Below, one piece after another: positions 2,034-64,000 of a stretch of DNA of 64,000 bases. The notes below the pieces were generated by a model. The model had not been told where the DNA came from, did no database searches, and saw only the letters and a program-made list of their open reading frames with translations. This stretch comes from Escherichia coli. GTDB taxonomy: Bacteria; Pseudomonadota; Gammaproteobacteria; Enterobacterales; Enterobacteriaceae. The number at the start of each line of letters is the position of its first letter. The first letter of the stretch is position 1. The stretch lies in NCBI RefSeq assembly GCF_003018235.1, contig NZ_CP027439.1. One strand, given 5' to 3'. The translations under genes were made by a program, and so were the position numbers.

Positions 2034-2955
<922 letters not shown>

Positions 2956-3067
2956 TTAATCATGAGAAGGGTTCATAGACGCAATCATTTTAGCCTCGTT
3001 ACTCTCAATAATCACAGTTGATACACTTCTTCACAGTTAAATTCTCCAATTGCTCAGCAGGTTTATA

Positions 3068-3838
3068 ATGAAGGTTTTAATTGTCGGTGCGACCGGCAGT
3101 ATTGGTCGTCATGTTGTAGAAATGTCGATAGAAATGGGACATCAATCGAAAGCCCTGGTCCGTTCCCCAAAAAAAAGAAAATTGTTGCCACAGGGAATTG
3201 AGATTGTTTATGGCGACGTCTCTGTCCCGGAAACATTGACCGGCATTGGAGATGATATCGATGCCGTTATTTTCACCCTGGGATCAGATGGATTAGGCCG
3301 CATTGGTGCTCGGGCAGTGGACTATGGCGGGGTGAAAAATATTCTTCAACAACTTAAGCATCGGCGAGTCAGAGTTGCGCTGATGACTGCCATCGGCGTG
3401 ACAGAAAGAGAAGGTTCGTATAACCGCCAGACGGAAGCGCATGACTGGAAACGTCGTGCGGAACGCCTGGTTCGTGCCAGCGGTCACCCCTATACCATCG
3501 TCAGGCCTGGTTGGTTTGATTACAACAAACCGAATGAACAACAAATCGTCATGTTACAGGGAGACAGACGTCATTCAGGCACACCGATCGATGGCGTGAT
3601 TTCCCGTAAACAAATAGCCAGAGTACTGGTTAGCGCATTAACAGACGATGATGCTAAGAATAAAACGCTTGAACTCATTGCCGAAAAAGGGAAAGAGCAA
3701 CAGAATCTCACCCCACTTTTCTCAGCCCTGCAACAGGACCGCGCAGATAAAAACGATGGTATTCATGATTTAAACAACATGCCCATGGACTCAGAGCCTG
3801 AGTGCGTTGTTCGTGATCTTAATGCAATGACGCAATAA
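3068..3838 (+). CDS. NAD(P)H-binding oxidoreductase, NmrA-like/atypical SDR
   Basis: Rossmann motif MKVLIVGATGSIGRHVV at N-terminus; start chosen at internal ATG of ORF 3050..3838. Confidence 0.75.
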   Translation: MKVLIVGATGSIGRHVVEMSIEMGHQSKALVRSPKKRKLLPQGIEIVYGDVSVPETLTGIGDDIDAVIFTLGSDGLGRIGARAVDYGGVKNILQQLKHRRVRVALMTAIGVTEREGSYNRQTEAHDWKRRAERLVRASGHPYTIVRPGWFDYNKPNEQQIVMLQGDRRHSGTPIDGVISRKQIARVLVSALTDDDAKNKTLELIAEKGKEQQNLTPLFSALQQDRADKNDGIHDLNNMPMDSEPECVVRDLNAMTQ

Positions 3839-3848
3839 GATAAATATA

Positions 3849-3878
3849 AAAAAGGCGGTATATTCTACCGCCTTTTTT
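3849..3878. terminator. Bidirectional hairpin terminator between convergent genes
   Basis: aaaaaaggcggta-tatt-ctaccgcctttttt, stem flanked by A-run and T-run. Confidence 0.65.
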
Positions 3879-3880
3879 AA

Positions 3881-4936
3881 TTACGCCTTCAATGAGGCCA
3901 TATCGATCACAAAGCGATATTTTACATCACTCTTTAGCATCCGCTGCCAGGCCGTGTTAATATCCGAAATATTAATCAACTCAATATCAGACGTTATCTG
4001 ATGCTTTGCACAGAAATCGATCATTTCCTGTGTCTCCGCAATCCCACCAATGACCGAGCCAGCCACCGATTTTCGTCCTAAAATCAGCGGCGCGCTGTTC
4101 AGCATCGGATTCAAGTCTCCCAGATACCCCACAAGCACCAGTGTTCCGCTCAGCGCCAGCGTCGGAATATAGGGATTCAGATCATGCACATAAGGAACCG
4201 TATCGATAATCAAATCAAACTGGTTATGTGCTTCCTGCATCTGCTTTTCATCGGTTGAAATAACAATATGCGTGGCCCCCAGACGGCGAGCATCGGCCTC
4301 TTTGTTCGGCGAACGACTGAATAACGTGACTTCCGCACCCAGCGCTTTGGCTAATTTTATCGCCATATGCCCCAGACCACCCAACCCAACGACCACAACT
4401 TTGCTGCCCGGGCCAACATTCCAGTGACGAAGCTGTGACCAGGTGGTGATACCCGCGCACAGCAGCGGTGCTGCACCTTTTAAATCCAGCGTATCAGGTA
4501 CTTTGATAACGAATTTTTCGGTGACCACAATCTTGTCCGAATAGCCGCCATAGGTTGGCATATGGTCATGCCTGTCAATGTCGTTATAGGTTAAGGTATT
4601 GCCCTCTTCACAGTACTGCTCCAGCCCCTGCTCACAGGGCTTACAATGCTGGCAGGAGTCCACCATGCAACCTACACCGGCATAGTCGCCCACGCGGAAT
4701 TCGGTCACCGCCTTGCCAATCTGAGTCACTCGGCCAATGATTTCATGCCCCGGCACCATCGGATATTTTACACCGCCCCAGTCATTAAACGCATTGTGGA
4801 TGTCTGAGTGACAAACGCCGCTGTATAAAATCTCGATAACCACATCGTTATCGCGCGGATCGCGGCGAACAAAATTGTGTGGTACTAAATCCTCTTTCGC
4901 GGCAAAAGCGGCATAACCTTTCACATTTAAGGTCAT
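3881..4936 (-). CDS. Zinc-type NAD(P)-dependent alcohol dehydrogenase (YahK/cinnamyl-ADH-like)
   Basis: GVCHSDIH zinc motif, GHEIIGRV, GLGGLGHMAIK Rossmann motif; start at ATG 4936 (MTLNVKG) preceded by GGAG. Confidence 0.9.
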   Translation of the reverse strand: MTLNVKGYAAFAAKEDLVPHNFVRRDPRDNDVVIEILYSGVCHSDIHNAFNDWGGVKYPMVPGHEIIGRVTQIGKAVTEFRVGDYAGVGCMVDSCQHCKPCEQGLEQYCEEGNTLTYNDIDRHDHMPTYGGYSDKIVVTEKFVIKVPDTLDLKGAAPLLCAGITTWSQLRHWNVGPGSKVVVVGLGGLGHMAIKLAKALGAEVTLFSRSPNKEADARRLGATHIVISTDEKQMQEAHNQFDLIIDTVPYVHDLNPYIPTLALSGTLVLVGYLGDLNPMLNSAPLILGRKSVAGSVIGGIAETQEMIDFCAKHQITSDIELINISDINTAWQRMLKSDVKYRFVIDMASLKA

Positions 4937-5013
4937 CGTTGAATCTCCGAATAAGAAATGAAACGACATGATGGTCACACGGCGGCCATCATGTCCTTGG
5001 AAGAGTAAGAGGG

Positions 5014-5412
5014 TTATTGCGGGCGTAATTCGCCATATTTATAAGATGCCGTTGCGCCGCCATCAATCAGCAGATCGCTGCCGGTAATGTAGGTACCATT
5101 AGGCCCAAACAGAAACTCTGCCAGCGCACCAATCTCATCCGGCGTGCCTCCCCGCCCTGCCGGCGATTTATCAAGCATATTGCGATAAAACGCACCCCGT
5201 TCTGCGCTATTAAGCTCGTCATAGGCTAGGGGCGTAAAGATGATCCCGGCACTGATGCAGTTAATTCGCGCCCCACGTTTGCCCCACTTCACTGCTTCTG
5301 ACATGACACGGAGTGCATTACAACGCTTGGAAATCTGGTAGGCGTATAAGCTGTCTTCAATATCTTTCATCAGTGGCAACTCGAGCAGTTCCTCCGGCGG
5401 TAACGGGAGGGC
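5014..5412 (-). pseudogene. Truncated SDR oxidoreductase (C-terminal ~130 aa only), paralog of the gene at 6366..7193
   Basis: Translation LPLMKDIEDSLYAYQISKRCNALRVMSEAVKWGKRGARINCISAGIIFTPLAYDEL... aligns to the C-terminal half of the intact SDR; N-terminal half absent. Confidence 0.8.
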
Positions 5413-5573: not shown

Positions 5574-6270
5574 TCATACGGCTCTCGATGTATTCGTGGC
5601 AATCGGTTGGAATAGCAAAGGGTAACTGGTTATCCCGTAATGATTTGTCAAAATCGCCAGATGGGATCAGATAATCATCGAAATTCCTGTATCGGCGAGA
5701 TCCCTTTACCCAGATGTCACCTGAACGCAAGACTCCCTTCAGCTCATTCAGCACGCAAAATTCGTAATATTTTCGGTCAATGCCGGTGGGAGTGATCACC
5801 ACCTTTCTCCAGCTTTCCGGGATAAACCTGGTTGGCGCGGAAGGTGGTACTTTTCGGAGTTGTTTTCGATACATCTCTCTGACGGTATCAAGCGCGTCAC
5901 TGAGCTGCATTGCGGTAGGTGCAGCCCTGAACTGCAACGCGGACAGCATCCGGGGGGCGTATTTACGCAGCGTACTGTATTTTTCTGTGATTAGATGCAA
6001 CGGGTCGAAGTTGTCCTTACGTGACAGGAGCCGCGTCTCTTCCACACTGTTGATAAATTCCTGCCAGGGAAGGACGTCTTCTATTGCGGCCCAGGGATCT
6101 TCACCGGATTCTCTGGCATTAAGCAATGCCTGCCCGACGGTAACGTATTGCTTCAGCTTACTCTGAATCAGCTTTCCCGTTTGCTGGAGTCGTTCGGCCT
6201 GCGTGCGTTTTGCCCTGCTGAACAGACTGCCCAGAATACGCTCGTGCAGATCAATAACTTCGTCAGTCAG
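5574..6270 (-). pseudogene. Internal fragment of a Tn3-family transposase (TnpA), truncated at both ends
   Basis: ORF 5512..6306 translation (LSALQFRAAP, KYYEFCVLNELKGVLRSGDIWVKGSRRYRNFDDYLIP) resembles the middle part of Tn3-type TnpA; ~230 aa of an expected ~1000. Confidence 0.5.
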
Positions 6271-6336
6271 CGTTCTAATGATACTGACGATTAATATAAA
6301 TAACATAGCCCAGCCAGAAGGCTGGGCTAACAGGAA

Positions 6337-6364
6337 GGCAGACTATTCACGTGTAGATAGTCTG
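6337..6364 (-). terminator. Hairpin downstream of SDR gene
   Basis: gcagactat-N10-atagtctgc, 9-bp stem immediately 3' of the minus-strand stop. Confidence 0.4.
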
Positions 6365-6365
6365 C

Positions 6366-7193
6366 TTATGGCCTGAGTTCCCCGTATTTATAAGAGGCCG
6401 TCACGCCGCCATCAATCAGAATGTCACTCCCGCTGATATACGTCCCGGCTGGCCCGAAAAGGAGTTCGGCTAATGCACCTATTTCATCCGGGGTTCCACC
6501 TCGTCCGGCTGGCGATTTTTCAAGCATATTCCTGTAAAACTCTCCACGCTCCGGACTCGTTAATTCGTCATAGGCCAGAGGGGTGAAAATAATCCCTGCA
6601 CTGATACAGTTAATGCGCGCTCCGCGTTTACCCCATTTCACGGCTTCCGCCATCACGCGCAGTGCGTTACCACGTTTGGATATTTGATAGGCGTAGAGGC
6701 TGTCATCAATTTCTTTAACGAACGGCAAATCCAGTAATGCCTCAGGTGTCAGCGTGGCTAATGCATCGGCCTGTGACTGGGTCAGGGCATCAACATTCAG
6801 ACGATGACTGGATTGTGAACCGATCACCACAGCGGAGCCTCCGGGGGCAATAACCTTACCAAATTCTTCAAATACGACAGCAGTCCCATATAAATCAACC
6901 CGAAGAATATCTTGGGCTTTGGCCTGTGAGGGGGAGAGCCCCGCTGTATGGATGACGCCTTTTATGTCCCCCAGCTCGGTGGCCGTGCGGACCAGGTTCT
7001 GGACTGACTGTCGGGAACTGACATCAACGACAGCGGTACTGATCGTAAAGCCTGCTTTTGACAGAATTTCTTCGGCTGACTGCGCACTTTCAGCCTTAAT
7101 ATCAGCCAGTAAAATATGCTTACCCACACTGACTCTGCGCGCAATCGCCTGCGCAATTGAGCCACTTCCAATGACCACAATGATCTCTTTCAT
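6366..7193 (-). CDS. Short-chain dehydrogenase/reductase (SDR) family oxidoreductase
   Basis: 275 aa; N-terminal glycine-rich motif IIVVIGSGSIAQAIARR and SDR catalytic YxxxK (YAYQISK). Confidence 0.85.
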   Translation of the reverse strand: MKEIIVVIGSGSIAQAIARRVSVGKHILLADIKAESAQSAEEILSKAGFTISTAVVDVSSRQSVQNLVRTATELGDIKGVIHTAGLSPSQAKAQDILRVDLYGTAVVFEEFGKVIAPGGSAVVIGSQSSHRLNVDALTQSQADALATLTPEALLDLPFVKEIDDSLYAYQISKRGNALRVMAEAVKWGKRGARINCISAGIIFTPLAYDELTSPERGEFYRNMLEKSPAGRGGTPDEIGALAELLFGPAGTYISGSDILIDGGVTASYKYGELRP

Positions 7194-7259
7194 GCGATGT
7201 TCCTTATTGTCGGTGGATCAGTGCGGCCTGATTACAGGCCGCAATCTCACTGGTTGATA

Positions 7260-8408
7260 CTACAATGCGAGTTTAAGGATTGTGGTTAACACATCCGGGG
7301 TGTAGGTCTCAGCCAGCCCGAACCAGCGGGTATTCCCTTCCAGGTTTTCCAGGATACGGGGAAAGTCTGCCTCCGTTATTCCCAGTTGTGACAGACGAGT
7401 TGGGGTACCAATTTTATCAAACCATTTTTCAAGCGCCAGGATGCCTTGTTCAGCGGTTTTCAAACCGAACAGATGCTGCGCAAAACGCTCAAACTGAGAA
7501 GGATTCTGGCTGTGGTACCACTTCATCCATGCAGGCATTACAACGGATAACCCTGCACCATGGGGAACATTAAAGAGGGCTGACAGAGAATGCTCAATCA
7601 TGTGATTAGGGTAGCTGAATCCTGACGTTCCGGCATAGATCAGGCCATTAAGTGCCAGCGTTGCTGCCCATGCAAATTCCGCCCGGGCGTTGTAGTCGCC
7701 CGCATCTGCCAGCAACATTTCCGTCGTCTCCATGACCGTTGCGATAACCGATTCAACCAGACGTGACTGGATTTTCGGCTGCACCGCTGCTGTGAAATAA
7801 CCTTCAATGGAATGGGCGATAATGTCCGCTGCCGAATAGACAAGATAGTCCCGGGAGACCGTCTGCATCAGTGCCGGGTTCACAACGGAGACTTTCGGAA
7901 ACGTATGCACGGAATGCAGAGCAAATTTTTCCAGCGTGGCGTCATTGGTGACAACGGCACCACCGTTCATCTCACTGCCGGTCGCGGCAAGAGTCAGAAC
8001 AGAAAACACGGGTAAGGCAGCTTCGATTTGTCCTTTACCGATAAACAAATCCCAGACGTCGTTCTCATAAAGTGCGCCTGCCGCGACAGATTTCGCACTA
8101 TCCAGTACAGAACCGCCGCCCACGCTTAAAATGGCATCAACCTGGTGAGCACGCGCCAGCTGAATACCTTCTCTGACCTTAGAAATCAGCGGGTTGCTGA
8201 CTATCCCGCCAAACTCTACATACTGAATGCCGTGCTTTGTCAGGCTGTCGCTGATAGTGCTGAACAAACCATCTCGCTTGATGCGGTCACTGCCAAACGC
8301 CAGCAGAACTTTACTGACTTTCTGCTCTGCTAGGATCTGGCCGATCAGCTTTTCTTTGTCTGCACCAAATTCAATTCGGGTCGGGTTATAAAAACTGAAA
8401 TTATCCAT
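7260..8408 (-). CDS. Iron-containing alcohol dehydrogenase (YqhD/BdhA-like aldehyde reductase)
   Basis: 382 aa, N-terminus MDNFSFYNPTRIEFG typical of Fe-ADH family. Confidence 0.85.
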   Translation of the reverse strand: MDNFSFYNPTRIEFGADKEKLIGQILAEQKVSKVLLAFGSDRIKRDGLFSTISDSLTKHGIQYVEFGGIVSNPLISKVREGIQLARAHQVDAILSVGGGSVLDSAKSVAAGALYENDVWDLFIGKGQIEAALPVFSVLTLAATGSEMNGGAVVTNDATLEKFALHSVHTFPKVSVVNPALMQTVSRDYLVYSAADIIAHSIEGYFTAAVQPKIQSRLVESVIATVMETTEMLLADAGDYNARAEFAWAATLALNGLIYAGTSGFSYPNHMIEHSLSALFNVPHGAGLSVVMPAWMKWYHSQNPSQFERFAQHLFGLKTAEQGILALEKWFDKIGTPTRLSQLGITEADFPRILENLEGNTRWFGLAETYTPDVLTTILKLAL

Positions 8409-8541
8409 CAGTCACCTCTGTGAAATTAAGTCTGTGAATGCTGTTCTGTGTAACAACACTATAAGCAACTGACTCACAACCAACCAGATGGTAATATGAT
8501 GAATCAGTTACAACTAAATGATGTAAATAAGAGTACTGCTC

Positions 8542-9498
8542 ATGATTAATGAACTGCGTTCAGTGACCACCTTTATCCGGACTGTTGAGCTGGGAAGTCT
8601 GAGTAAAGCTGCTGAAGCCCAGCAAATATCACCTCAGGCGGCGAGTAAGGCCTTAAAGCAACTCGAAAGCTCTCTGGGCGTGAGGCTGTTTCACCGCACA
8701 ACACGGAGTATGTCGCTCACTGAGGAAGGGCAACGGTTTCTCGAAGCAGCCAAACCAGCACTGACCGGGTTACAGCAGGCTTTTGCTTCTGTCCGGCAGA
8801 CGCGGGAGGGGTTTTCCGGGCCATTGCGCATAGTGGCTCCGCGTTCTGTTGTACAGCATATTATTCACCCTGTGCTGATTGAATATTGTCGGCTTTACCC
8901 GGAAGTTCAGCCTGATGTCCAGCTTGATGACGGGGTGGATAACTGGGTTGAGAAGCGCGTGGATGTTGGTTTTCGGATTGCTGTTTCACCGCAGGATGGG
9001 CTGATTGCCAGACGCCTGTTTCCGTTGCAACTGATTATATGCGCATCGCCTGCATATCTTCGCAAATATGGTATGCCGAAATCACTGCATGACCTCAGTA
9101 ATCACCGCTGTAATACATTTCGACATGCCGCAACCGGGCGATTACTTCCCTGGACTGTGAAGGAAGGAGACAACATACAGGAGCACTATGTTAAGCCTGC
9201 CATGTCGACAAATGATGAGATGCTGGAATTACATGCCGTCCTTGCCGGAGAAGTTATTGCTCAGGTTGCAGCACCGACAGCAGCGCAATACATACGATCA
9301 GGTCAGCTTGTGCCACTGTTACTGGAGAATATCGCTGATGTCCACAGCCTGTTTCTCTATTATGGGAGCCGGGTCGCTCAGCCACTTCGTATTCGCCGTT
9401 TTATTGACCTTGCTGTTGAGCGCCTGGCCAGTAGAAAGGGCTTTGTTTTTTCCTCAGAAGAACTGAGACAGGCACATATTGAAGGTATTGCAATGTAA
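8542..9498 (+). CDS. LysR-family transcriptional regulator
   Basis: HTH region plus LysR effector domain; divergent from Fe-ADH; paralog of 12146..13105. Confidence 0.9.
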   Translation: MINELRSVTTFIRTVELGSLSKAAEAQQISPQAASKALKQLESSLGVRLFHRTTRSMSLTEEGQRFLEAAKPALTGLQQAFASVRQTREGFSGPLRIVAPRSVVQHIIHPVLIEYCRLYPEVQPDVQLDDGVDNWVEKRVDVGFRIAVSPQDGLIARRLFPLQLIICASPAYLRKYGMPKSLHDLSNHRCNTFRHAATGRLLPWTVKEGDNIQEHYVKPAMSTNDEMLELHAVLAGEVIAQVAAPTAAQYIRSGQLVPLLLENIADVHSLFLYYGSRVAQPLRIRRFIDLAVERLASRKGFVFSSEELRQAHIEGIAM

Positions 9499-9717
9499 CA
9501 GTACTGTTCTTCCCGGTATCGAAGTTAATACCTTCAATAAATCCATCACACTGGATGACTTTCTCCCAGATGCACTTCCCTCTCTCACACACAACTCGTT
9601 TGTATAATGTTGCGTGGTGCGAGGGACATCTGCTCCCGCAGCGACCGGAAACATCCCTGCCGTCAGGCAGAGAGCGAGGGACGCTGCCAGACCCTGCATT
9701 TTTTTGTCTATTTTCAT
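9454..9717 (-). CDS. Possible small secreted protein (signal-peptide-like N-terminus)
   Basis: MKIDKKMQGLAASLALCLTAGMFPVAAGA looks like a signal peptide; overlaps the 3' end of the LysR gene by 45 bp; no other support. Confidence 0.2.
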   Translation of the reverse strand: MKIDKKMQGLAASLALCLTAGMFPVAAGADVPRTTQHYTNELCVREGSASGRKSSSVMDLLKVLTSIPGRTVLLHCNTFNMCLSQFF

Positions 9718-9823
9718 ACAGATTTCCTGATACAGGAACGCCCGATTCCTGTCTGTGAATACGTCATGCCAACGAACAGAGAAAAACGGCCCCTGTACGG
9801 AGCCGTTAGCATGGTAAAACAGG

Positions 9824-10600
9824 TTATGACAGGTTACCGGCGTAGACCTGTGTCTGGCCGCCGTCGATGGTAAGATTTATACCGTTGATAAAACTGCTGG
9901 CGTCGGATGCCAGGAACACGACGCCGTCCCCGATCTCATCAGCACGACCAACACGTCCGACGGGGATCTCCGCTGCACATTTGGCGGCGAAGGCTTCAAC
10001 CTCCTCCGGGGTCATACCCTGCACGGTTTCATAGCCTTCAGTCGGGATAGCCCCTGGACTGATAACATTCACGCGGATATTGCGTGTCTTGAGCTCAGTG
10101 GTCCAGACTCGCGCCATGCCGATAACTGCCGCTTTGGTCGCGGCGTAAGTCGTGTATTCCGGCAGACCAATAAAGGCGGTCATGGAGGACGTCAGAATGA
10201 TTGAACCGCCAGCATTCATAATGGGCAGCATGGCTTGTACGGTGAATAACTGCCCCTTAAGGTTGATGTTCAGCATGTTGTCGAAAAACTCTTCGCTCAC
10301 GTCCTCTAGTTTCTTGCCTATGTAGTAGCCGGCATTAGAGAAAATGATGTCCAGATGACCTTTTTCCAGCTGAATGACTGAGGCGACATTCACCATGTCT
10401 TCCTTGCGGGAGACATCGGCAACGATGGCACGGGCATTTGGGCCAATCTGTTTAATCGCCTCATCCAGGACGTCCTGGCGGCGGCCCACTATATAGACAA
10501 AAGCACCTTCTTCAGCAAGGCGCTTTGCGCCCCCCAGACCGAGTCCCGTTCCGCCACCCGTGACCAGTGCCACTTTACCTTTTAACGTTTGAACCGACAT
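9824..10600 (-). CDS. SDR family oxidoreductase
   Basis: 258 aa; KVALVTGGGTGLGLG cofactor motif and NAG motif. Confidence 0.9.
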   Translation of the reverse strand: MSVQTLKGKVALVTGGGTGLGLGGAKRLAEEGAFVYIVGRRQDVLDEAIKQIGPNARAIVADVSRKEDMVNVASVIQLEKGHLDIIFSNAGYYIGKKLEDVSEEFFDNMLNINLKGQLFTVQAMLPIMNAGGSIILTSSMTAFIGLPEYTTYAATKAAVIGMARVWTTELKTRNIRVNVISPGAIPTEGYETVQGMTPEEVEAFAAKCAAEIPVGRVGRADEIGDGVVFLASDASSFINGINLTIDGGQTQVYAGNLS

Positions 10601-10630
10601 AAATATTCCTCTGTTTGTAATACAGGTGGC

Positions 10631-10924
10631 TTACGCGATCGTCTGCACGACGCTCATGCAGGAGAGATCGATAATGTCTTTGATTTTCTCTCCGAGGGCC
10701 AGATGATCAGGGGCGCGCATATAGCGCTCCCAGTCCTCCCGGGAATCGAACTCGGCAATCAGCACCACTGCCTGGGTTTCTGACCAGTCGAGTGTCTTTT
10801 CAACGCTGAAGGCTTTGATCCTCGGGACGATGGAGGGCAATTGGCGAAGGATGTCCACTACAGCAGACAGCTCGGCCTCAGTCTTACCTGGATATGTTTT
10901 GCCTATGAAAATATGTTTCAACAT
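10631..10924 (-). CDS. Dabb-family stress-responsive alpha/beta-barrel protein
   Basis: 97 aa; size and sequence pattern typical of Dabb domain proteins co-transcribed with oxidoreductases. Confidence 0.6.
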   Translation of the reverse strand: MLKHIFIGKTYPGKTEAELSAVVDILRQLPSIVPRIKAFSVEKTLDWSETQAVVLIAEFDSREDWERYMRAPDHLALGEKIKDIIDLSCMSVVQTIA

Positions 10925-10935
10925 TCGGGGCTCCT

Positions 10936-11997
10936 TCAGGCATTTTTCAGCGTAGACATGTCAATAGAGAAACGATATTTGACGTCACCCTTTTCCAGGC
11001 GGACATAAGCTTCATTAATCTCCTGGATGCCGATGACTTCCACATCGGATGTGATGTTGTGCTGACCGCAGAAATCGAGCATTTCCTGCGTTTCAGCAAT
11101 CCCGCCAATAAGTGACCCGGACAGGCTACGGCCGCCAAAAATAAGGCTGTAGGCTGAGACATCAATTTTGTCAGCAGAAGCGCCAACCAGCGTCAGATTA
11201 CCTTCCGGATGCAGCATATTGAGGTAAACATTCAGATCATGTGGAGCGGATACGGTATCGAGAATAAAATCAAACGTACCGGCGTGAGCCTGCATCTCTT
11301 CCGGGTTTCGTGACACCACTACTTCATGAGCACCAACACGGAGTGCATCTTCTTTCTTGGATGGAGATGTGGTGAAGAGAACCACATGTGCGCCCAGGGC
11401 GCGGGCAAATTTTACGCCCATATGTCCTAGTCCGCCCAGACCAACGATACCCACTTTCTGACCGGCCTTTACACCCCAGCGACGGATAGGGGAATAGGCA
11501 GTGATGCCCGCACATACCAGCGGAGCAACACCTGCCAGATCGAGATTTTCCGGTACCTGAAGAACAAAATGCTCATCCACCACAATGCTTTCGGCATAAC
11601 CACCGTAGGTCACCGGAGCAGTACCGTAATTATCCGGTGAGTTATACGTCAGCACCTTGGTAGGGGAATACTGTTCACGATTCGCTTTACAGTGAGGGCA
11701 GGTTGGATCGGCATCGACCAAGCAGCCCACAGCGACAATATCGCCAGCCTTGTGTTTTGTCACCGCCGTGCCCACCGAGATAACCCGGCCTACAATTTCA
11801 TGACCCGGAACAATCGGGTAAATGGTTGGCATGGCGCTGCCGAACTCATCACGCACATGGTGAATGTCAGAGTGGCAAACCCCGCAGAACAGAATATCAA
11901 TCCGGACATCGTGCTCATTCGGATCACGACGCGGGATCGATAACGGTGCAAGTGGGGATGTTGCGGACGTGGCCGCATAAGCTTTGGTTACGTACAT
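10936..11997 (-). CDS. Zinc-type NAD(P)-dependent alcohol dehydrogenase
   Basis: GVCHSDIH, GHEIVGRV, GLGGLGHMGVK motifs; paralog of 3881..4936. Confidence 0.9.
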   Translation of the reverse strand: MYVTKAYAATSATSPLAPLSIPRRDPNEHDVRIDILFCGVCHSDIHHVRDEFGSAMPTIYPIVPGHEIVGRVISVGTAVTKHKAGDIVAVGCLVDADPTCPHCKANREQYSPTKVLTYNSPDNYGTAPVTYGGYAESIVVDEHFVLQVPENLDLAGVAPLVCAGITAYSPIRRWGVKAGQKVGIVGLGGLGHMGVKFARALGAHVVLFTTSPSKKEDALRVGAHEVVVSRNPEEMQAHAGTFDFILDTVSAPHDLNVYLNMLHPEGNLTLVGASADKIDVSAYSLIFGGRSLSGSLIGGIAETQEMLDFCGQHNITSDVEVIGIQEINEAYVRLEKGDVKYRFSIDMSTLKNA

Positions 11998-12145
11998 TCT
12001 TTGCTCCCGTTGATCCCGGCCAGAAGTGCCGGGAAGTGCGACTACTATAGGGAGCTAATTATCAATATAATAGATAGTAAATCATTGAAGCTGTTGCAAG
12101 TATTAATTGATAATAATGTGAGTTATCCTGATAGGGAAAGGCATC

Positions 12146-13105
12146 ATGCTGACAAAAGACATTCGCGCGATAGATATACTGGCGAAAGCTGTGGAACTGG
12201 GCAGCCTGCGCCAGGCCGCTCTCGCAAAAGGGGTGACCTCACAGGCCGCCAGCCAGACACTCGCTCAACTTGAAGACTCACTGGGGGTGCGCCTTCTGCA
12301 CCGCACAACTCGCAGCCTCTCTCTGACAGAGGAGGGCAGGCAACTGCTGGAAGCCACACAACCGGCACTGGCGGTACTGGACCGTGCCCTTACGCGTGCA
12401 CGGCAGGCAAAGGACGAGGTTGCCGGTCCGTTGCGTATTGTTGGTCCCCGATCGGCCTTCACACCGGTTTTATGGCCAGTCATTGACGAATACTGCCGGC
12501 GCTACCCGGACGTTCAGCCAGAAGTGCAGCTTGATGACAACGTGGGGGACTGGGTTCTTGATCGAGTGGACGTGGGGTTTCGGTTTGGTTCTCCGCCTGC
12601 AGAGGGGCTTATCGCACGCCCGCTGTTCCGTGCGCAACTGATTATCTGTGCATCACCGGCATACCTCCGCACGCATGGTGTACCCCGTTCGCTGGAGGAA
12701 CTAGCGTACCACCGCTGCAGCGTCTTTCGCCATCCGGGAACGGATGCAATATTTCCCTGGTACGTAAATATAGGGGGAGAAATCCAGACACGAGAGTTTC
12801 CTCCAACCGTGGCAACAAACAGCACAGACATAGAAGTTGAGGCCACGCTGACCGGACAGGTCATCGCACAGCTCTCATCATTGTCCTCAGCTGCGCTGAT
12901 CCGCGCAGGCCGTCTTGTGCCCTTACTAACAGAGCATGTGGCCAGCCACCTTCATCTGTACGCTTACTACGGGAGCCGCAAAGCGCAGCCGCTGCGGGTC
13001 AGAAAATTTATCGAGCTCGCCGTCGAACGGTTAACGGACAACCGGGAGCTGACTCTGACTACAGATGAACTGCAGACGTATTCTGCTGAAAGGCTGAACC
13101 AGTAA
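12146..13105 (+). CDS. LysR-family transcriptional regulator
   Basis: 319 aa, HTH plus effector domain; divergent from the ADH gene. Confidence 0.9.
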   Translation: MLTKDIRAIDILAKAVELGSLRQAALAKGVTSQAASQTLAQLEDSLGVRLLHRTTRSLSLTEEGRQLLEATQPALAVLDRALTRARQAKDEVAGPLRIVGPRSAFTPVLWPVIDEYCRRYPDVQPEVQLDDNVGDWVLDRVDVGFRFGSPPAEGLIARPLFRAQLIICASPAYLRTHGVPRSLEELAYHRCSVFRHPGTDAIFPWYVNIGGEIQTREFPPTVATNSTDIEVEATLTGQVIAQLSSLSSAALIRAGRLVPLLTEHVASHLHLYAYYGSRKAQPLRVRKFIELAVERLTDNRELTLTTDELQTYSAERLNQ

Positions 13106-13725
13106 GTGACATGTACGAAAACGCCCTTTGTGAAAACAAGACGGGATTCAGATTCATAACCCAGTCAGATATGTCTGCTCCTGACACTTAGCTGACTTTT
13201 AACGGGAGAACAGCCTGGCGGGCTTATATATACAGTTATCGCAATAATTTGCGTGATTTCCTGTGCTGGGGACAATAATCCGCTCAGCACAATAATCGTT
13301 CTTAATTAGTGCCCCTCATTCATCAATCCCTCTCATCTTCTCCGCAGATCCGAAAACCTCCAGAGTAGGATCTTGTCTCACCCTACCGGCGCTGCACACC
13401 ACGACAACACAAGATGTAGCGGCTCTGTCAACTGCCTTGGCTACCAGATGTTGTGTTTATCTCTTCGTTCTGTGAGGGGCGCTGCACGCCGGAAAACGGA
13501 GCTTTGCTCAGGGCGTAATCGTGCTACACTTCCGGAAAGTCGTGAATACGTGAAAAATCGGATCACCTGAAAACCGCCATCCGTTAATTTAATCCAGTGG
13601 TTATCAGGCTGCTAATTATCAGACAAAGAAAACATCATGGCAGGGAAAGTCCTGTGTGTGATAGTCAGGTGAGTTAGCGGTGGTGAGGTAATGATTGCGG
13701 TTTGTGATTATTTATTGGAAAAGGA

Positions 13726-14108: not shown

Positions 14109-15839
<1,731 letters not shown>

Positions 15840-18595: not shown

Positions 18596-19003
18596 TTGCT
18601 TATGACACTGGACCAACTGCTTGAAATCCACGACTGCGCTGGGCTGAGCACCTATGAACAGGAAACAATTATATCTTTCATTAACCAGCGGCGAGGTGAC
18701 TTTGGTGTAAAAGCGTTTCCGGAAATTATGCCTCCAGTATCTTGCGGCTGGATCTCCAGAAGAACAAAACAACGTTCTCAGGAGCAGGCAGACGAAAATA
18801 GCTGGAATTATTATAAACAGAAGATTCAGGAATGGATAACGCTAATCGAATTGCATGAGGCATCACTTACTAGGGGGGAAAAGCTAAAGCGCTTTGTGGG
18901 AAAGCATAAATGGTGGTTAGGAGGCACTTGCGCAGTTATCGCATCAATTACAAGCACTGTGATAGCTAGCTGGATTCTTTCGTTATGGACTTGGGCTAAC
19001 TGA
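18596..19003 (+). CDS. Small protein with C-terminal transmembrane segment
   Basis: 135-aa ORF; C-terminal WWLGGTCAVIASITSTVIASWILSLW. Confidence 0.5.
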   Translation: MLMTLDQLLEIHDCAGLSTYEQETIISFINQRRGDFGVKAFPEIMPPVSCGWISRRTKQRSQEQADENSWNYYKQKIQEWITLIELHEASLTRGEKLKRFVGKHKWWLGGTCAVIASITSTVIASWILSLWTWAN

Positions 19004-19005
19004 CG

Positions 19006-19030
19006 TGACAGAAGCTGCGTTACGTCCAAG
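19006..19030 (+). repeat. Conserved inter-cassette site, degenerate copy
   Basis: GTGACAGAAGCTGCGTTACGTCCAAG directly after stop of 18596..19003. Confidence 0.5.
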
Positions 19031-19120
19031 TTGATAAAAAGTTGTTATCCACAGAGAACAGGGCGGTCATCCGGCGGGTTCAATAATATGATATTATTAC
19101 AGCACCTTAAAAAATAAGGA

Positions 19121-19450
19121 TTGCGGACGGATGATATATTGATAAAGGATACTCATGCGTGTAAAACGCAAAATACCCTGAGTAATCAGGGTATTAAACG
19201 CGGAAAAGTAAAGGTTGAGCGCTTTACATTTTCCATTCACACCAGAGGCGTGACTAAATCTAAAATTGATTCTACGGCAACGTTCAATCTACGTCAAATC
19301 GCCAATGGTTTTCCTGTTATGAAAATTACCGGAGGCTTCATGTTGTTAACCATCATCGACACCTATCTTCATGCTTCATTACTGACACAGATACTGGTAA
19401 TCCCGTTTATCTGTGCGGTGGTGTGGGCGGTAAAGAAAATCCGGGTATAA
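19121..19450 (+). CDS. Small protein with C-terminal transmembrane tail (family A paralog)
   Basis: ATFNLRQIANGFPVMKITGGFMLLTIIDTYLHASLLTQILVIPFICAVVWAV parallels the C-terminus of 18130..18441. Confidence 0.5.
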   Translation: MRTDDILIKDTHACKTQNTLSNQGIKRGKVKVERFTFSIHTRGVTKSKIDSTATFNLRQIANGFPVMKITGGFMLLTIIDTYLHASLLTQILVIPFICAVVWAVKKIRV

Positions 19451-31395: not shown

Positions 31396-31907
31396 ATGTT
31401 CTTTAAAAATCAGGATTTATTTCAGCCTCCGGCAATACGCATTTATTTGTTCTGTCAGTCATCCGGCTGACAGGTAATGAGAACGCAGGAACAGAAGGAG
31501 GAAAACACCGGAAAGCGTCAGATGCAGATATGAAAAAAGCAGGTCAGGGACCTGCTTAATCCATGCCGCAGAGACTGCACGAACAGTTTTTGCGGCTCCA
31601 GTCAATCGTCATAAGAGGCTAAATTATGACAATAAGTATTGTTTCACCTTCCGCAGCGGCTGTAAAGCCCCGCCGTCATCCCCGTTTCAGACGCGAAGAC
31701 ATCCCCGCGCCGGAAATTGACCCCGTGCTGAAAGCCTTCGGGCGACACATAGCCCGGAGTTTTCACCGGGGGCGTGGTGCACACATCCCCGCCATGAAAA
31801 ACACGGCCTTCGGGCAGGTGCTCCGCACACTCGAACTGAAACGCGCTTTTAACTGATGAGGTGAGCCGCCCCGCGAGGGGCGGCAACAGACGGAAGGAGA
31901 ACATTTT

Positions 31908-33315: not shown

Positions 33316-33879
33316 ATGCACAGTCAGTTAAAAGAACGTATCCGGCTGATGCGCGCAAGGCTGGATAACGCCGCGCCGGTTGCTGAAATCCGGGCTGAAT
33401 CTCAGCTTTTTGTGACTCCTGCCCCGGTCTGTGATCGCCTGGTGACGCTGGCGGAGATCAGCAACCGTGATCACATTCTGGAACCCTCTGCCGGCACCGG
33501 GGCCATACTGCGGGCGATTCGGGATACCGCGCCGGGGGCCATGTGTGATGCGGTGGAAATCAACAGCGGGCTGGTCCGGTATCTGCGGGAAAATTTTAAC
33601 GGTGTCAGGGTTCAGTGTGGCGACTTCATGGAATGGCAGCCGGTGCAGTATTACAGCCGGGTTATCATGAATCCGCCGTTCAGCCACGGGCAGGATATCC
33701 GGCATATCCTGCGGGCCTTTTCCCTGTTGCGTCCGGGTGGCGTGCTGGTTGCCGTCTGTCTGAACGGGCCGCGCCAGCAGGAGAAGCTGTTACCGTTTTC
33801 TGACGTCCGCGAGGAGCTGCCACGCGGCACGTTTGCTTATACCGATGTTCCGACGATGATTATTCGTCTGCGTGCCTGA
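33316..33879 (+). CDS. Orphan SAM-dependent DNA methyltransferase (N6-adenine type)
   Basis: SAM-binding EPSAGTGAIL and catalytic NPPF motif; no adjacent restriction enzyme. Confidence 0.75.
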   Translation: MHSQLKERIRLMRARLDNAAPVAEIRAESQLFVTPAPVCDRLVTLAEISNRDHILEPSAGTGAILRAIRDTAPGAMCDAVEINSGLVRYLRENFNGVRVQCGDFMEWQPVQYYSRVIMNPPFSHGQDIRHILRAFSLLRPGGVLVAVCLNGPRQQEKLLPFSDVREELPRGTFAYTDVPTMIIRLRA

Positions 33880-34060
33880 TGACTCCGGGCAGGCGGGAGG
33901 ACAAATGCCCGTCTGCCCGCGCCGGGAAAAGACCGCGCGCCGGTGGCGCTGAAAGGGGCCGCGCTCACGCGCCGCCCCTTACATTACGCGGACATTCTGC
34001 TGTGGGCTTCTGTCTTTTCAGACCTGTCATTTGTCTGTTACTGATGATGTTGTTGTTCCT

Positions 34061-34108
34061 GCTACTGCTACTGCTACTGCTACTGCTACTGCTACTGCTA
34101 CTGCTACT
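34061..34108. repeat. Hexanucleotide tandem repeat (GCTACT)x8
   Basis: Eight perfect tandem copies read directly, followed by a CT-rich tract. Confidence 0.9.
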
Positions 34109-34162
34109 GTTCTTCTTTTTTCTGCTGTTCTGATTACTGCCTGTTTTGTTGTTCTCCTGCTT

Positions 34163-34700
34163 ATGCCTTTTCCGGGCGTCCCCCTGGCGGGGCGGGCTGT
34201 CGTGAACGGAGCCAGCGAAGCTGTCTCCGCCCTGGCGGGCTTCCATCCCTGACGCGAAACCCCGGGCTTGCAGCGACCGTTCCGGTCGCGCCGCCTCTGT
34301 CGCGCCGTGGCCTGCGCTCCCGGCATCCCGGCAAAAGGCCGCCGGGATGTAAGGGGCAACGCCGTTTCGCAAACCGCGCTTCACGTCGTTGCGGCGGGTC
34401 CCTGTCCGTTGTTGTGTCCGGTGCCATTCACCTGTTTAAGCCCCTGTCGCCGGGGGCTGATACAGCCACAACCGTCTCCGCCAGTCCAGGGGTGAAATGT
34501 ACATCCCGCAAAACTTTTTGCCCAAAAGCAGGCAAAAACTTTTGCGGTCTGCCCCCGGACAGTCGTTTCCGGCCGTGGCAGTGATGCCCCTTGCGGCGAA
34601 GGTTCTCAAAAAGGTGATGGTGAATACCGGAGGGAACAAAAGGCAGGTCCCCGCAAAACGTCAAAACCGCGGCTCCCGAAACTCAAAAGATGATGGGGGC
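34163..34700 (+). repeat. Frpo/ssi-like leading-region repeat, copy 2
   Basis: Near-identical blocks to copy 1 (GCGTCCCCCTG...GGCAACGCCGTTTCGC) and copy 3. Confidence 0.75.
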
Positions 34701-38785: not shown

Positions 38786-39006
38786 TGCGGCAACAATCAC
38801 ACAGATTACCCGTAAACAGCCTGAATGAGCGGGTTATTTTCAGGAAAAGTGAGTGTGGTCAGCGTGCAGGGATATGGGCTATGATGTGCCCGGCGCTTGA
38901 GGCTTTCTGCCTCATGACGTGAAGGTGGTTTGTTGCCGTGTTGTGTGGCAGAAAGAAGATAGCCCCGTAGTAAGTTAATTTTCATTAACCACCACGAGGC
39001 ATCCCT

Positions 39007-39219
39007 ATGTCTAGTCCACATCAGGATAGCCTCTTACCGCGCTTTGCGCAAGGAGAAGAAGGCCATGAAACTACCACGAAGTTCCCTTGTCTGGTGTGTG
39101 TTGATCGTGTGTCTCACACTGTTGATATTCACTTATCTGACACGAAAATCGCTGTGCGAGATTCGTTACAGAGACGGACACAGGGAGGTGGCGGCTTTCA
39201 TGGCTTACGAATCCGGTAA
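39007..39219 (+). CDS. mok: Mok, overlapping leader reading frame of the hok/flm locus
   Basis: 70-aa frame overlapping hok in another frame, as in hok/sok-type loci. Confidence 0.6.
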
Positions 39220-39675: not shown

Positions 39676-40128
39676 ACCACAGGCTTGCAGCGACCGTTCC
39701 GGTCGCGCCGCCTCTGTCGCGCCGTAGCCTGCGCTCCCGGCATCCCGGCAAAAGGCCGCCGGGATGTAAGGGGCAACGCCGTTTCGCAAACCGCGCTTCA
39801 CGTCGTTGCGGCGGGTCCCTGCCCGTTGTTGTGTCCGGTGCCATTCACCTGTTTAAGCCCCTGTCGCCGGGGGCTGATACAGCCACAACCTGCCGCACTG
39901 ACTGTCCAGGGTAAATGAACAGCCCACAAAATTTTTTACCCAAAACCCGGTAAAAAATTTTGCGTTCTGCCCAGGACAGGTGCGTCAGGCCGTGGCAGTG
40001 ATGCCCCTTGCGGCGAAGGTTCTCAAACAGGTGATGGTTAATACCGGAGGGAACAAAAGGCAGGTCCCCGCAAAACGTCAAAACCGCGGCTCCCGAAACT
40101 CAACAGATGATGGGGGCTGAAAACCAGA
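39676..40128 (+). repeat. Frpo/ssi-like leading-region repeat, copy 3
   Basis: Shares the 3' block with copy 1 and the central block with copy 2. Confidence 0.75.
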
Positions 40129-42923: not shown

Positions 42924-43034
42924 AAGAAATTTGACTTCGTTCAAATATCAGAGTTTTTATGATTTAAAAGGGTGACAGTACGAAAGATAATTAGTATATT
43001 AATTACGTGGTTAATGCCACGTTAAAATTTGAAT

Positions 43035-43113
43035 TTGAAAATCGCCGATGCAGGGAGTTCACGTCTCCCTGCATCGACTGTCCATAGAATCCTTTGTGAG
43101 GAGGTTCCTATGT
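43035..43113 (-). ncRNA. finP: FinP antisense RNA (approximate coordinates)
   Basis: Stable hairpin GATGCAGGGAG-N8-CTCCCTGCATC in the traJ leader; position matches F finP; ends not determinable. Confidence 0.4.
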
Positions 43114-43799
43114 ATCCGATGGATCGTATTCAACAAAAACATGCTCGTCAAATAGATCTGCTGGAAAATCTGACGGCAGTTATTCAGGATTATCCAAATC
43201 CAGCCTGTATCAGGGACGAAACTGGAAAATTTATTTTTTGCAATACGCTGTTTCATGAGTCATTTCTTACACAAGATCAAAGTGCTGAAAAATGGCTTCT
43301 GTCGCAGAGAGATTTTTGTGAATTGATCTCTGTCACAGAGATGGAAGCATACAGGAATGAGCATACGCATCTTAATCTTGTAGAGGATGTTTTTATTCAG
43401 AACAGATTCTGGACAATATCTATTCAGTCATTTCTTAATGGACACAGAAATATCATTCTGTGGCAATTTTATGATGCTGCTCATGTTCGTCATAAAGACA
43501 GTTATAATCAAAAAACGATTGTCAGTGATGATATCAGAAATATAATCAGAAGAATGAGTGATGATTCTTCTGTATCATCATATGTAAATGATGTCTTTTA
43601 CTTATATAGCACCGGAATCAGTCATAATGCTATAGCAAGAATATTAAACATATCCATCTCCACATCAAAGAAACACGCGTCTCTGATATGCGACTACTTC
43701 TCTGTTTCTAATAAAGATGAGTTAATCATCTTACTCTACAATAAAAAGTTTATTCATTATTTGTACGAGAAGGCTATGTGTATCATAAATACGCGTTAA
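43110..43799 (+). CDS. traJ: Transfer operon activator TraJ
   Basis: Start MYPMDRIQQKHARQIDLLENL with GAGG RBS; position between traM and traY. Confidence 0.85.
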   Translation: MYPMDRIQQKHARQIDLLENLTAVIQDYPNPACIRDETGKFIFCNTLFHESFLTQDQSAEKWLLSQRDFCELISVTEMEAYRNEHTHLNLVEDVFIQNRFWTISIQSFLNGHRNIILWQFYDAAHVRHKDSYNQKTIVSDDIRNIIRRMSDDSSVSSYVNDVFYLYSTGISHNAIARILNISISTSKKHASLICDYFSVSNKDELIILLYNKKFIHYLYEKAMCIINTR

Positions 43800-62082: not shown

Positions 62083-64000
62083 ATGAAGTTTATGTGATTG
62101 CCGGTGGTGAGTGGTTGCGGAATAACCTGAACGCCATTGCCGCTTTTATGGGAACCAGGACGTGGGATTCCATTGAAAAAATTGCGCTCACATTGTCTGT
62201 TCTCGCGGTGGCCGTGATGTGGGTACAGCGGCACAACGTGATGGATTTGCTGGGCTGGGTGGCCGTGTTTGTGCTTATCAGCCTGCTGGTTAATGTCCGC
62301 ACATCGGTGCAGATTATTGATAACAGTGACCTGGTCAAAGTTCACCGGGTGGATAATGTGCCGGTCGGACTGGCGATGCCACTTTCACTGACGACCCGTA
62401 TCGGGCATGCAATGGTGGCCAGTTACGAGATGATCTTCACGCAACCGGACAGTGTCACCTACAGCAAAACGGGGATGCTGTTTGGCGCAGAACTGGTATC
62501 AAAAAGCACCGACTTTTTGTCCCGGAATCCGGAAATCGCCAATCTTTTCCAGGATTATGTGCAGAACTGCGTGATGGGGGATATTTACCTGAACCACAAA
62601 TATACGCTGGAGGAGCTGATGGCCTCCGCTGATCCCTACACGCTGATTTTTTCCCGCCCCAGCCCGCTGCGGGGCGTTTATGACAGCAATAATAATTTCG
62701 TAACCTGTAAGGACGCTTCGGTTTCGCTGAAAGACAAGCTGAATCTGGACACACAGAGTGGCGGAAAAACCTGGCATTATTATGCCCAGCAGCTATTTGG
62801 CGGACGCCCTGATCCTAACCTGCTGTTCAGTACGCTGATTGGCGACAGTTACAGTTACTTCTATGGCTCAAGTAAATCAGCCAGCCAGATCATCCGCCAG
62901 AATGTCACCATCAATGCGCTGAAGGAGGGGATCACCAGTTATGCCGCACGTAATGGTGATTCGGCCAGCCTGGTGAATCTGGCCACCACATCATCGATGG
63001 AGAAGCAACGTCTGGCACATGTCTCCATCGGTCATGTGGCGATGCGGACACTGCCCATGACGCAGACCATCCTGACGGGGATCGCCATCGGTATTTTCCC
63101 GCTCCTGGTACTGGCGGCTGTCTTCAACAAACTGACGCTGTCCGTCCTGAAAGGCTATGTGTTTGCCCTGATGTGGTTGCAGTCATGGCCAATGTTGTAC
63201 GCCATTCTGAACAGCGCCATGACATTTTATGCAAAGCAGAATGGTGCACCGGTGGTGCTCTCGGAAATTTCACAGATACAGCTGAAATACTCCGATCTGG
63301 CTTCCACTGCCGGGTATCTTTCCATGATGATCCCGCCATTATCCTGGATGATGGTCAGGGGGCTCGGGGCAGGATTTTCCAGTGTGTACAGCCATTTCGC
63401 TTCCTCTGCTATCAGCCCGACCGCCAGTGCAGCAGGCAGTGTGGTTGACGGTAATTACTCCTACGGCAACATGCAGACGGAGAACGTTAACGGCTTCAGC
63501 TGGAGCACCAACAGCACCACGTCGTTTGGTCAGATGATGTACCAGACCGGCAGTGGCGCAACCGCCACACAGACCCGTGACGGTAATATGGTGATGGATG
63601 CAAGCGGAGCGATGTCCCGGTTACCGGTCGGCATCAATGCAACGCGTCAGATTGCGGCGGCACAACAGGAAATGGCCCGGGAAGCATCGAACAGAGCAGA
63701 AAGTGCCCTGCATGGGTTCAGCAGCAGTATTGCCAGTGCCTGGAACACGCTCAGTCAGTTTGGTTCTAACCGGGGGAGCAGTGATTCTGTCACCGGTGGT
63801 GCTGACAGCACGATGAGTGCTCAGGACTCCATGATGGCCAGCCGTATGCGCAGTGCAGTGGAAAGCTATGCGAAGGCGCATAATATCAGTAATGAGCAGG
63901 CGACTCAGGAACTGGCATCAACAAGTACCAGGCTATCTGGTGGAATGTATGCTGATGCTCATGCTGAATGGGGGGTTAAACCTAAAATTCTTGGTGTTGG
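62079..64000 (+). CDS. traG: Mating-pair stabilisation protein TraG, N-terminal part (3'-partial)
   Basis: GTG start overlapping traH stop; translation (M)NEVYVIAGGEWLRNNLNAIAAFMGTRTWDS... open to window end. Confidence 0.9.
   Translation, partial: MNEVYVIAGGEWLRNNLNAIAAFMGTRTWDSIEKIALTLSVLAVAVMWVQRHNVMDLLGWVAVFVLISLLVNVRTSVQIIDNSDLVKVHRVDNVPVGLAMPLSLTTRIGHAMVASYEMIFTQPDSVTYSKTGMLFGAELVSKSTDFLSRNPEIANLFQDYVQNCVMGDIYLNHKYTLEELMASADPYTLIFSRPSPLRGVYDSNNNFVTCKDASVSLKDKLNLDTQSGGKTWHYYAQQLFGGRPDPNLLFSTLIGDSYSYFYGSSKSASQIIRQNVTINALKEGITSYAARNGDSASLVNLATTSSMEKQRLAHVSIGHVAMRTLPMTQTILTGIAIGIFPLLVLAAVFNKLTLSVLKGYVFALMWLQSWPMLYAILNSAMTFYAKQNGAPVVLSEISQIQLKYSDLASTAGYLSMMIPPLSWMMVRGLGAGFSSVYSHFASSAISPTASAAGSVVDGNYSYGNMQTENVNGFSWSTNSTTSFGQMMYQTGSGATATQTRDGNMVMDASGAMSRLPVGINATRQIAAAQQEMAREASNRAESALHGFSSSIASAWNTLSQFGSNRGSSDSVTGGADSTMSAQDSMMASRMRSAVESYAKAHNISNEQATQELASTSTRLSGGMYADAHAEWGVKPKILGV

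Follow-up and report, generated by a model that had tools for sequence, protein, structure and literature searches.

A signal-peptide-like open reading frame beside a plasmid LysR gene as a possible chance frame in spacer DNA

An 87-codon open reading frame (ORF) on the minus strand, with the start of a secreted protein and an end inside a LysR gene, may well be a fortuitous, unconstrained frame in non-coding spacer DNA and not a gene; this is the explanation we favour, with moderate confidence. The ORF was found in the window, a 64,000-nucleotide stretch of Escherichia coli contig NZ_CP027439.1 (assembly GCF_003018235.1). A LysR2-ADH-Dabb-SDR2 operon is followed there, after its terminator, by ~290 bp (9519 to ~9809) of lineage-restricted DNA that travels with the operon. 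This DNA is open in one frame for 74 codons, and the frame simply runs on into whatever DNA adjoins at 9495. We propose that the resemblance to a signal peptide would be a by-product of a GC-rich imperfect hairpin, in which GCN, CTG and GGN codons yield Ala, Leu and Gly, and no functional product would be made. As a finding the ORF is ordinary and of low importance; it offers an example of a convincing 'secreted small protein' that could arise from spacer DNA and a rearrangement joint.

The ORF, its start signals and its plasmid setting

The first-pass annotation had described a possible small secreted protein that starts with a signal-peptide-like segment and overlaps the convergent LysR gene by 45 bp. 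These observations held. The ORF list and the sequence gave a minus-strand frame of 87 amino acids, initiated by ATG, with exactly the translation quoted, and the overlap with the LysR1 gene spans 9454-9498. The features of the locus are the following.

8542-9498, plus strand: LysR1, gene of an intact LysR-family regulator, convergent neighbour of the ORF
9454-9717, minus strand: the 87-codon ORF, with ATG at 9717-9715 and stop TGA at 9456-9454 (ORF list, sequence)
9496-9717, minus strand: codons 1-74, the sole part common to all ORF variants, which travels with the SDR2 operon (module Y, below)
9454-9495, minus strand: the tail, 13 codons and the stop, antisense to the last LysR1 codons
9631-9717, minus strand: signal-peptide-like codons 1-29 (MKIDKKMQGLAASLALCLTAGMFPVAAGA), from the heuristic
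9725-9728, minus strand: Shine-Dalgarno-like AGGA, 7 nt before the ATG (sequence)
9732-9752, minus strand: 7-bp inverted repeat ACAGGAA-N7-TTCCTGT, directly upstream of the Shine-Dalgarno-like motif (sequence, fold)
9776-9807, minus strand: intrinsic-terminator-like hairpin (9807-9785; 9 pairs, 6 of them G-C) with a T-run
9824-10600, minus strand: SDR2, gene of an SDR-family oxidoreductase, upstream of the ORF and on its strand

In the amino terminus the n-region MKIDKKMQG, rich in Lys, is followed by an uncharged hydrophobic stretch (LAASLALCLTAGMFPVAAGA), and A-G-A precedes D30. This amino terminus passed a simple signal-peptide heuristic (not SignalP), with the h-region counted from residue 9 and A27-G28-A29 preceding D30. 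The likeness to signal peptides of the Sec and signal peptidase I pathway extends to the Lys-rich n-region, the uncharged core of ~20 residues, A-G-A at -3/-1 and the Asp that follows. Unlike Sec-type signal peptides, however, this putative export signal precedes no conserved mature domain, near-identical copies carry the weakening substitutions G21E and G9D, and a GC-rich hairpin encodes its hydrophobic core. The hairpin is single, long and imperfect and encodes codons 7-27, nt 21-80 of the ORF pairing together in the fold. A lipobox ([LVI][ASTVI][GAS]C) was sought by reading the sequence and is absent, the only approach to it being L-A-L-C17, with Leu at -1. The predicted product also contains the peptides DVPRTTQHYTNELCVR and EGSASGR. 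A single-sequence AlphaFold model was uninformative (mean pLDDT 50.7, with no residue reaching 70).

The terminator-like hairpin follows the SDR2 stop by 16 nt and precedes the start of the ORF by ~60 nt. A search of 9300-10000 for sigma-70-like promoters found none, and a candidate sigma-54 promoter at TTGGCATGACGTATTCA was rejected by eye, the -12 GC being absent. The inverted repeat at 9732-9752 may serve as an operator-like site or form a small hairpin. In the matching plasmid pSCU-111-1 of E. coli (NZ_CP051728.1), which is 99.8% identical to this region of the window, PGAP called the LysR and SDR genes and left 9454-9717 unannotated.

Gathering-level Rfam matches in the window were as follows.

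14650-14772, plus strand: isrC
31534-31631, minus strand: AS-pc01
38891-39067, plus strand: sok
43005-43116: traJ 5' UTR and FinP
62798-62883, minus strand: AS-traG

These matches indicate an F-like conjugative plasmid. Around the ORF it is a mosaic rich in debris of IS100, IS110, Tn3 and IS66. Two modules, each combining a LysR regulator with oxidoreductases, adjoin at 6366-9498 and 9824-13105. LysR1 matches the Pantoea orthologue of LysR2 at 52% amino acid identity, and a relative 73% identical to LysR1 bears, in its source, the name OsaR (oxidative stress response regulator). Window stretches 9495-13183 and 2778-5405 are 98.2% and 94.8% identical, respectively, to a single contig of Pantoea sp. 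Morm (L094, VOQX01000030.1); LysR-regulated oxidoreductase modules are thus common to both genera.

A joint between two DNA modules

The ORF straddles the joint of two blocks of DNA that also occur apart. Module X (SDR1, Fe-ADH and LysR1; window 6264-9518) occurs without the ORF segment on the chromosome of E. coli AH19B041 and on E. albertii plasmid pEA4_88, where homology stops at 9518. Module Y (the ORF segment, SDR2, Dabb, Zn-ADH and LysR2; window 9495-13183) is present in the Pantoea sp. Morm contig at 98.2% DNA identity, and there homology stops at 9495. Since the modules overlap at 9495-9518 and the homology of Y ends at 9495, codons 1-74 alone form part of the DNA that accompanies SDR2. 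The joint has two features of its own.

9495-9518, no strand: a 24-bp stretch, GTAACAGTACTGTTCTTCCCGGTA, common to modules X and Y
9477-9539, no strand: a perfect inverted repeat whose 13-nt arms, 9477-9489 and 9527-9539, flank the 24-bp stretch

Within the 24-bp stretch lie the stop codon of LysR1 and a palindrome of 12 bp, AACAGTACTGTT, and three different junctions were seen at its two edges. The type found in E. albertii and AH19B041 follows 9518, while the Pantoea IS66 remnant and the left end of IS100 both follow 9495; the three junctions are independent and fall inside the 37-nt loop of the 13-nt inverted repeat (9477-9539), the loop that contains AACAGTACTGTT. The inverted repeat at the 3' end of LysR1 may be a site that is locally prone to breakage or insertion. 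There is a single copy of the 24-bp stretch in the window; of 72,556 plasmids only 2 contain it, and no similar sequence is present at 6264 or 13183. We rejected it as a recombination site or the end of a mobile element on the grounds of this rarity and the lack of a partner at the other module ends; likewise, the modules do not share one site at both ends as a site-specific recombination module (pdif-type or integron cassette) would, nor does the stretch recur in many contexts. The notion that the orphan segment is an inverted relic of a LysR 3' end was also discarded: the 13-nt identity gives IEGI in both, but nothing beyond the 13-mer matches.

The simplest account of the 13-nt repeat and the 24-bp overlap takes the arrangement of the window as old and derives the E. 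albertii-type and Pantoea-type arrangements from it. The 87-amino-acid frame would in that event not be a recent fusion, yet it would remain unsupported as a gene. Close relatives carry IS100 at three sites: in the interval from SDR2 to Dabb, within the SDR2 gene, and at codon 74 of the ORF (contigs L001, 7406-9360; L004, 3504-5460; L095, 5169-5193). The window contains no match to the 25-nt left end of IS100 and so carries the uninterrupted arrangement.

The 45-bp overlap with LysR1 arises because the frame runs on into the antisense of the LysR1 3' end that is joined at 9495. It is a frame tail crossing DNA modules and not a conserved gene overlap. The tail (9454-9495, minus strand) is specific to the plasmid lineage of the window, other sequence standing in its place in Pantoea and in L095.

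The protein collection held five variants of the ORF in one cluster, with DNA at least 98% identical. Three are 87 amino acids long, namely the window sequence, one with G9D and one with G9D and T71I; G9D, in the n-region, marks the P0001 lineage. The Pantoea variant has 141 amino acids and carries D4E and G21E. After codon 74 it continues for 67 codons antisense to a truncated IS66 remnant, covering codons 1-38 of an IS66-family orf1 and the terminus of the truncated element. In the 80-amino-acid variant of L095 (SRR21461730), codons 75-80 (6 codons) are the left end of IS100. The frame is thus preserved through codon 74 in Pantoea sp. Morm and L095, and beyond codon 74 the five variants have three unrelated C-termini, of 13, 67 and 6 codons, for lengths of 87, 141 and 80 amino acids. 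Other contigs with the 87-amino-acid form have the architecture of the window, with IS100 at various other sites. In all of the at least 36 contigs seen, which are near-identical in DNA, the frame is open. The Pantoea version was called a hypothetical protein by the gene caller and by NCBI; its G21E places a charge in the hydrophobic core, and this copy fails the signal-peptide heuristic.

Conservation and coding signals

Conservation of the reading frame in related sequences, a check named by the first-pass annotation, was essentially absent: there is no diverged homologue, the segment is missing from distant loci, and the C-terminus differs with each context. That annotation had left it open whether the ORF was a real small protein or an artefact. 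The features it listed stood, the interpretation as a secreted protein was not borne out by conservation, and an artefact is favoured.

A word-indexed search of 5.8 billion protein clusters returned one cluster, that of the ORF itself. Exhaustive phmmer with codons 1-69 against 1.84 billion representatives added two marginal matches (E ~3e-4 and ~7e-4), each covering ~30 query residues in proteins with 5 matched stretches, and we read both as low-complexity. On plasmids, tblastn against the 72,556 sequences matched pSCU-111-1 only, and blastn against the plasmids and 5,426 E. coli genomes matched that same plasmid and no other. Pfam and NCBIfam were empty for the ORF, as was Pfam for the two alternative-frame translations. 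In these searches no homologue appeared outside DNA at least 98% identical, the copies amounting to one plasmid lineage and one Pantoea contig.

Distant homologous loci gave the same picture. Hafnia paralvei has the LysR2-ADH-Dabb-SDR2 module, with SDR2 at 93% amino acid identity; the ORF segment is absent there, similarity stopping 17 nt past the SDR2 stop. An SDR1 homologue directly follows the SDR2 gene in Hafnia, so the arrangement of modules differs. In a contig scan of 80 SDR2-related loci neither blastn nor tblastn matched the segment, which was carried by the near-identical copies alone. Downstream of LysR1 homologues in Klebsiella oxytoca (82% amino acid identity) and a Logan contig no similar sequence was found; the neighbours there are a LacI-family gene or aldo-keto reductases.

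Codon usage was scored with a log-likelihood model, for which 28 long ORFs of the window served as the training set. Codons 1-74 scored 0.005 per codon. Among 222-nt windows cut from the training ORFs this is the 4.6th percentile, and ~20% of spurious ORFs score as high or higher (the ORF stands at about their 80th percentile). The ORF frame was the best of six over 9496-9717 in this model. Between the window and Pantoea the ORF has 2 synonymous and 2 non-synonymous changes. When all variants are counted, 4 changes are non-synonymous and 2 synonymous, as compared with 12 and 25 pooled over Dabb, ADH and LysR2; with so few sites the difference is not significant (Fisher p = 0.17).

ORFs of 85-110 amino acids are common in wrong frames of the window. 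The signal-peptide heuristic was passed by 10 of 338 ORFs of at least 50 amino acids. Eight of these are long ORFs in the tra region; the other two are the ORF at 9454-9717 and a spurious ORF in the ADH gene. This second ORF (10947-11186, minus strand; 79 amino acids, TTG start) is contained entirely in the Zn-ADH gene, whose frame is a different one. As a clear false positive it illustrates the chance rate. The heuristic was passed by 1 of 83 clearly spurious ORFs and by 0.6% of random peptides (~0.6-1.2%), so that the ~300 non-gene ORFs of at least 50 amino acids should supply ~2-3 signal-peptide-like starts per window. A signal-peptide-like start alone, being found in ~1% of spurious ORFs, is weak evidence. 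A Shine-Dalgarno-like motif at the right spacing preceded 3 of the 83 spurious ORFs, as against 14 of 28 long genes. Each of the two signals thus occurs in ~1-4% of spurious ORFs, and both together are expected ~0.1-0.3 times per window. With single rates this low the combination is mildly unusual, although not significant window-wide. To some extent it speaks for a gene start, present or former, but this is outweighed by the absence of homologues.

The ORF resembles spurious or over-predicted short ORFs, including chimeric ones at IS or recombination junctions, in its lack of homologues, its atypical codon usage, an end set by the adjoining DNA and its antisense overlap with a real convergent gene. 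It is also like them in being called by some pipelines (the Pantoea record) and not by PGAP (the E. coli plasmid). It differs from the typical case in its better start context of Shine-Dalgarno motif, ATG and signal-peptide-like N-terminus. This context, in which AGGA at ideal spacing, the ATG and a textbook n/h/c structure with A-x-A come together, counts against a chance frame. So do the first rank among the six frames, the intact frame in at least 36 near-identical contigs and the calling of the Pantoea copy; in addition, small orphan proteins are known to escape homology searches.

Alternative explanations

The ORF might instead be the 5' relic of the gene of a longer Sec-exported protein, a pseudogene fragment fused to foreign sequence, which we consider possible though unlikely. 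By this account the start of that gene was kept, from the ribosome-binding site and start codon through the signal peptide to the first ~45 residues of the mature part, and the rest was lost by rearrangement left of 9495. The co-occurrence of the Shine-Dalgarno motif, ATG and canonical signal peptide would then be explained, as would the rank of the frame in the codon score. The cut falls where three independent junctions were seen, two of them with IS elements, in a plasmid region that is itself a mosaic with IS100, IS110, Tn3 and IS66 debris. In this the ORF is like the gene fragments that IS rearrangement leaves on F-like plasmids: the mosaic of oxidoreductase modules is bounded by IS100, IS110, Tn3 and IS66 remnants, and in two relatives the frame meets IS100 and the IS66 remnant, respectively, at one and the same nucleotide. 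Such fragments normally have an intact parent gene, however, and none could be found for the ORF by word search, phmmer, tblastn on plasmids, tblastn and blastn on 93 loci, or Pfam and NCBIfam. Nor did ~15 billion predicted proteins contain a parent, although phmmer should find a full-length relative sharing 74 residues. Codon usage is poor, and no promoter lies between the upstream terminator and the start. The 13-nt repeat and 24-bp overlap further suggest that the LysR1 end and the segment were possibly original neighbours, in which case nothing was cut off.

It is improbable, in our estimate, that the ORF encodes a real lineage-specific small secreted protein. The sequence would predict a precursor of ~74-87 amino acids, cleaved at AGA/D to a mature form of ~45-58. 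Its translation would depend on transcripts that read through from the SDR2 operon, and it would tolerate replacement of its C-terminal tail. The joint presence of Shine-Dalgarno motif, ATG and signal-peptide start speaks for such a protein, as does the fact that none of the copies seen, whether in E. coli plasmids or in Pantoea, has an interrupted frame. Against it, there is no family and no conservation beyond 98%-identical DNA, the three C-termini are unrelated, and G21E and G9D introduce charge into the signal peptide. A 45-bp antisense overlap is unusual for convergent genes, a terminator stands upstream with no promoter-like site after it, the codon score is low and the structure model is of low confidence. 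If translated, the ORF would give an F-like plasmid an exported orphan peptide, without known relatives and of modest interest for small proteins and de novo gene birth.

Two bolder proposals have, taken together, a slim chance of including a correct one. Codons 1-74 may be a young, orphan exported micro-protein, predicted from sequence, that was carried with the oxidoreductase operon between Pantoea and E. coli plasmids and has a replaceable tail. Alternatively, breakage or insertion may favour the hairpin in which LysR1 ends (arms of 13 bp around a 37-nt loop with the 12-bp palindrome), and this hairpin may shuffle oxidoreductase modules.

Least credible, and in our view highly improbable, is that 9519-9784 forms a structured minus-strand RNA element, for example the leader of a gene since lost, or an element in the 3' UTR of the SDR2 operon that acts in stabilisation or processing, and that the ORF is incidental to it. 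The minus strand folds at -96 kcal/mol, as compared with -77.9 ± 5.0 for shuffled sequences (z = -3.6; 0 of 200 shuffles reached this value), while the plus strand gave z = -2.1 only. Calibration against the window weakened this raw score, which stands at the 4.5th percentile of 638 window tiles and is notable, not exceptional. Searches with Rfam 15 were also negative, with no match at E up to 1 in 9300-10000 and no gathering-level match in the region. Three Pantoea substitutions in one 7-bp stem keep the minus-strand pairing (C-G to U-G twice, U-G to U-A once), but three pairing-compatible transitions would occur by chance about once in four cases, and the copies found are all near-identical, with no diverged ones for covariation. 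Elsewhere in the window, very strong folding (z -5 to -6.4) was predicted for 199-nt tiles at 19001-19199 (plus strand), 39801-39999 (both strands), 33801-34599 (minus strand) and 31401-31599 (plus strand); the strongly folding tiles that overlap an Rfam match are only those starting at 43001 (traJ 5' UTR and FinP) and 31401 (AS-pc01).
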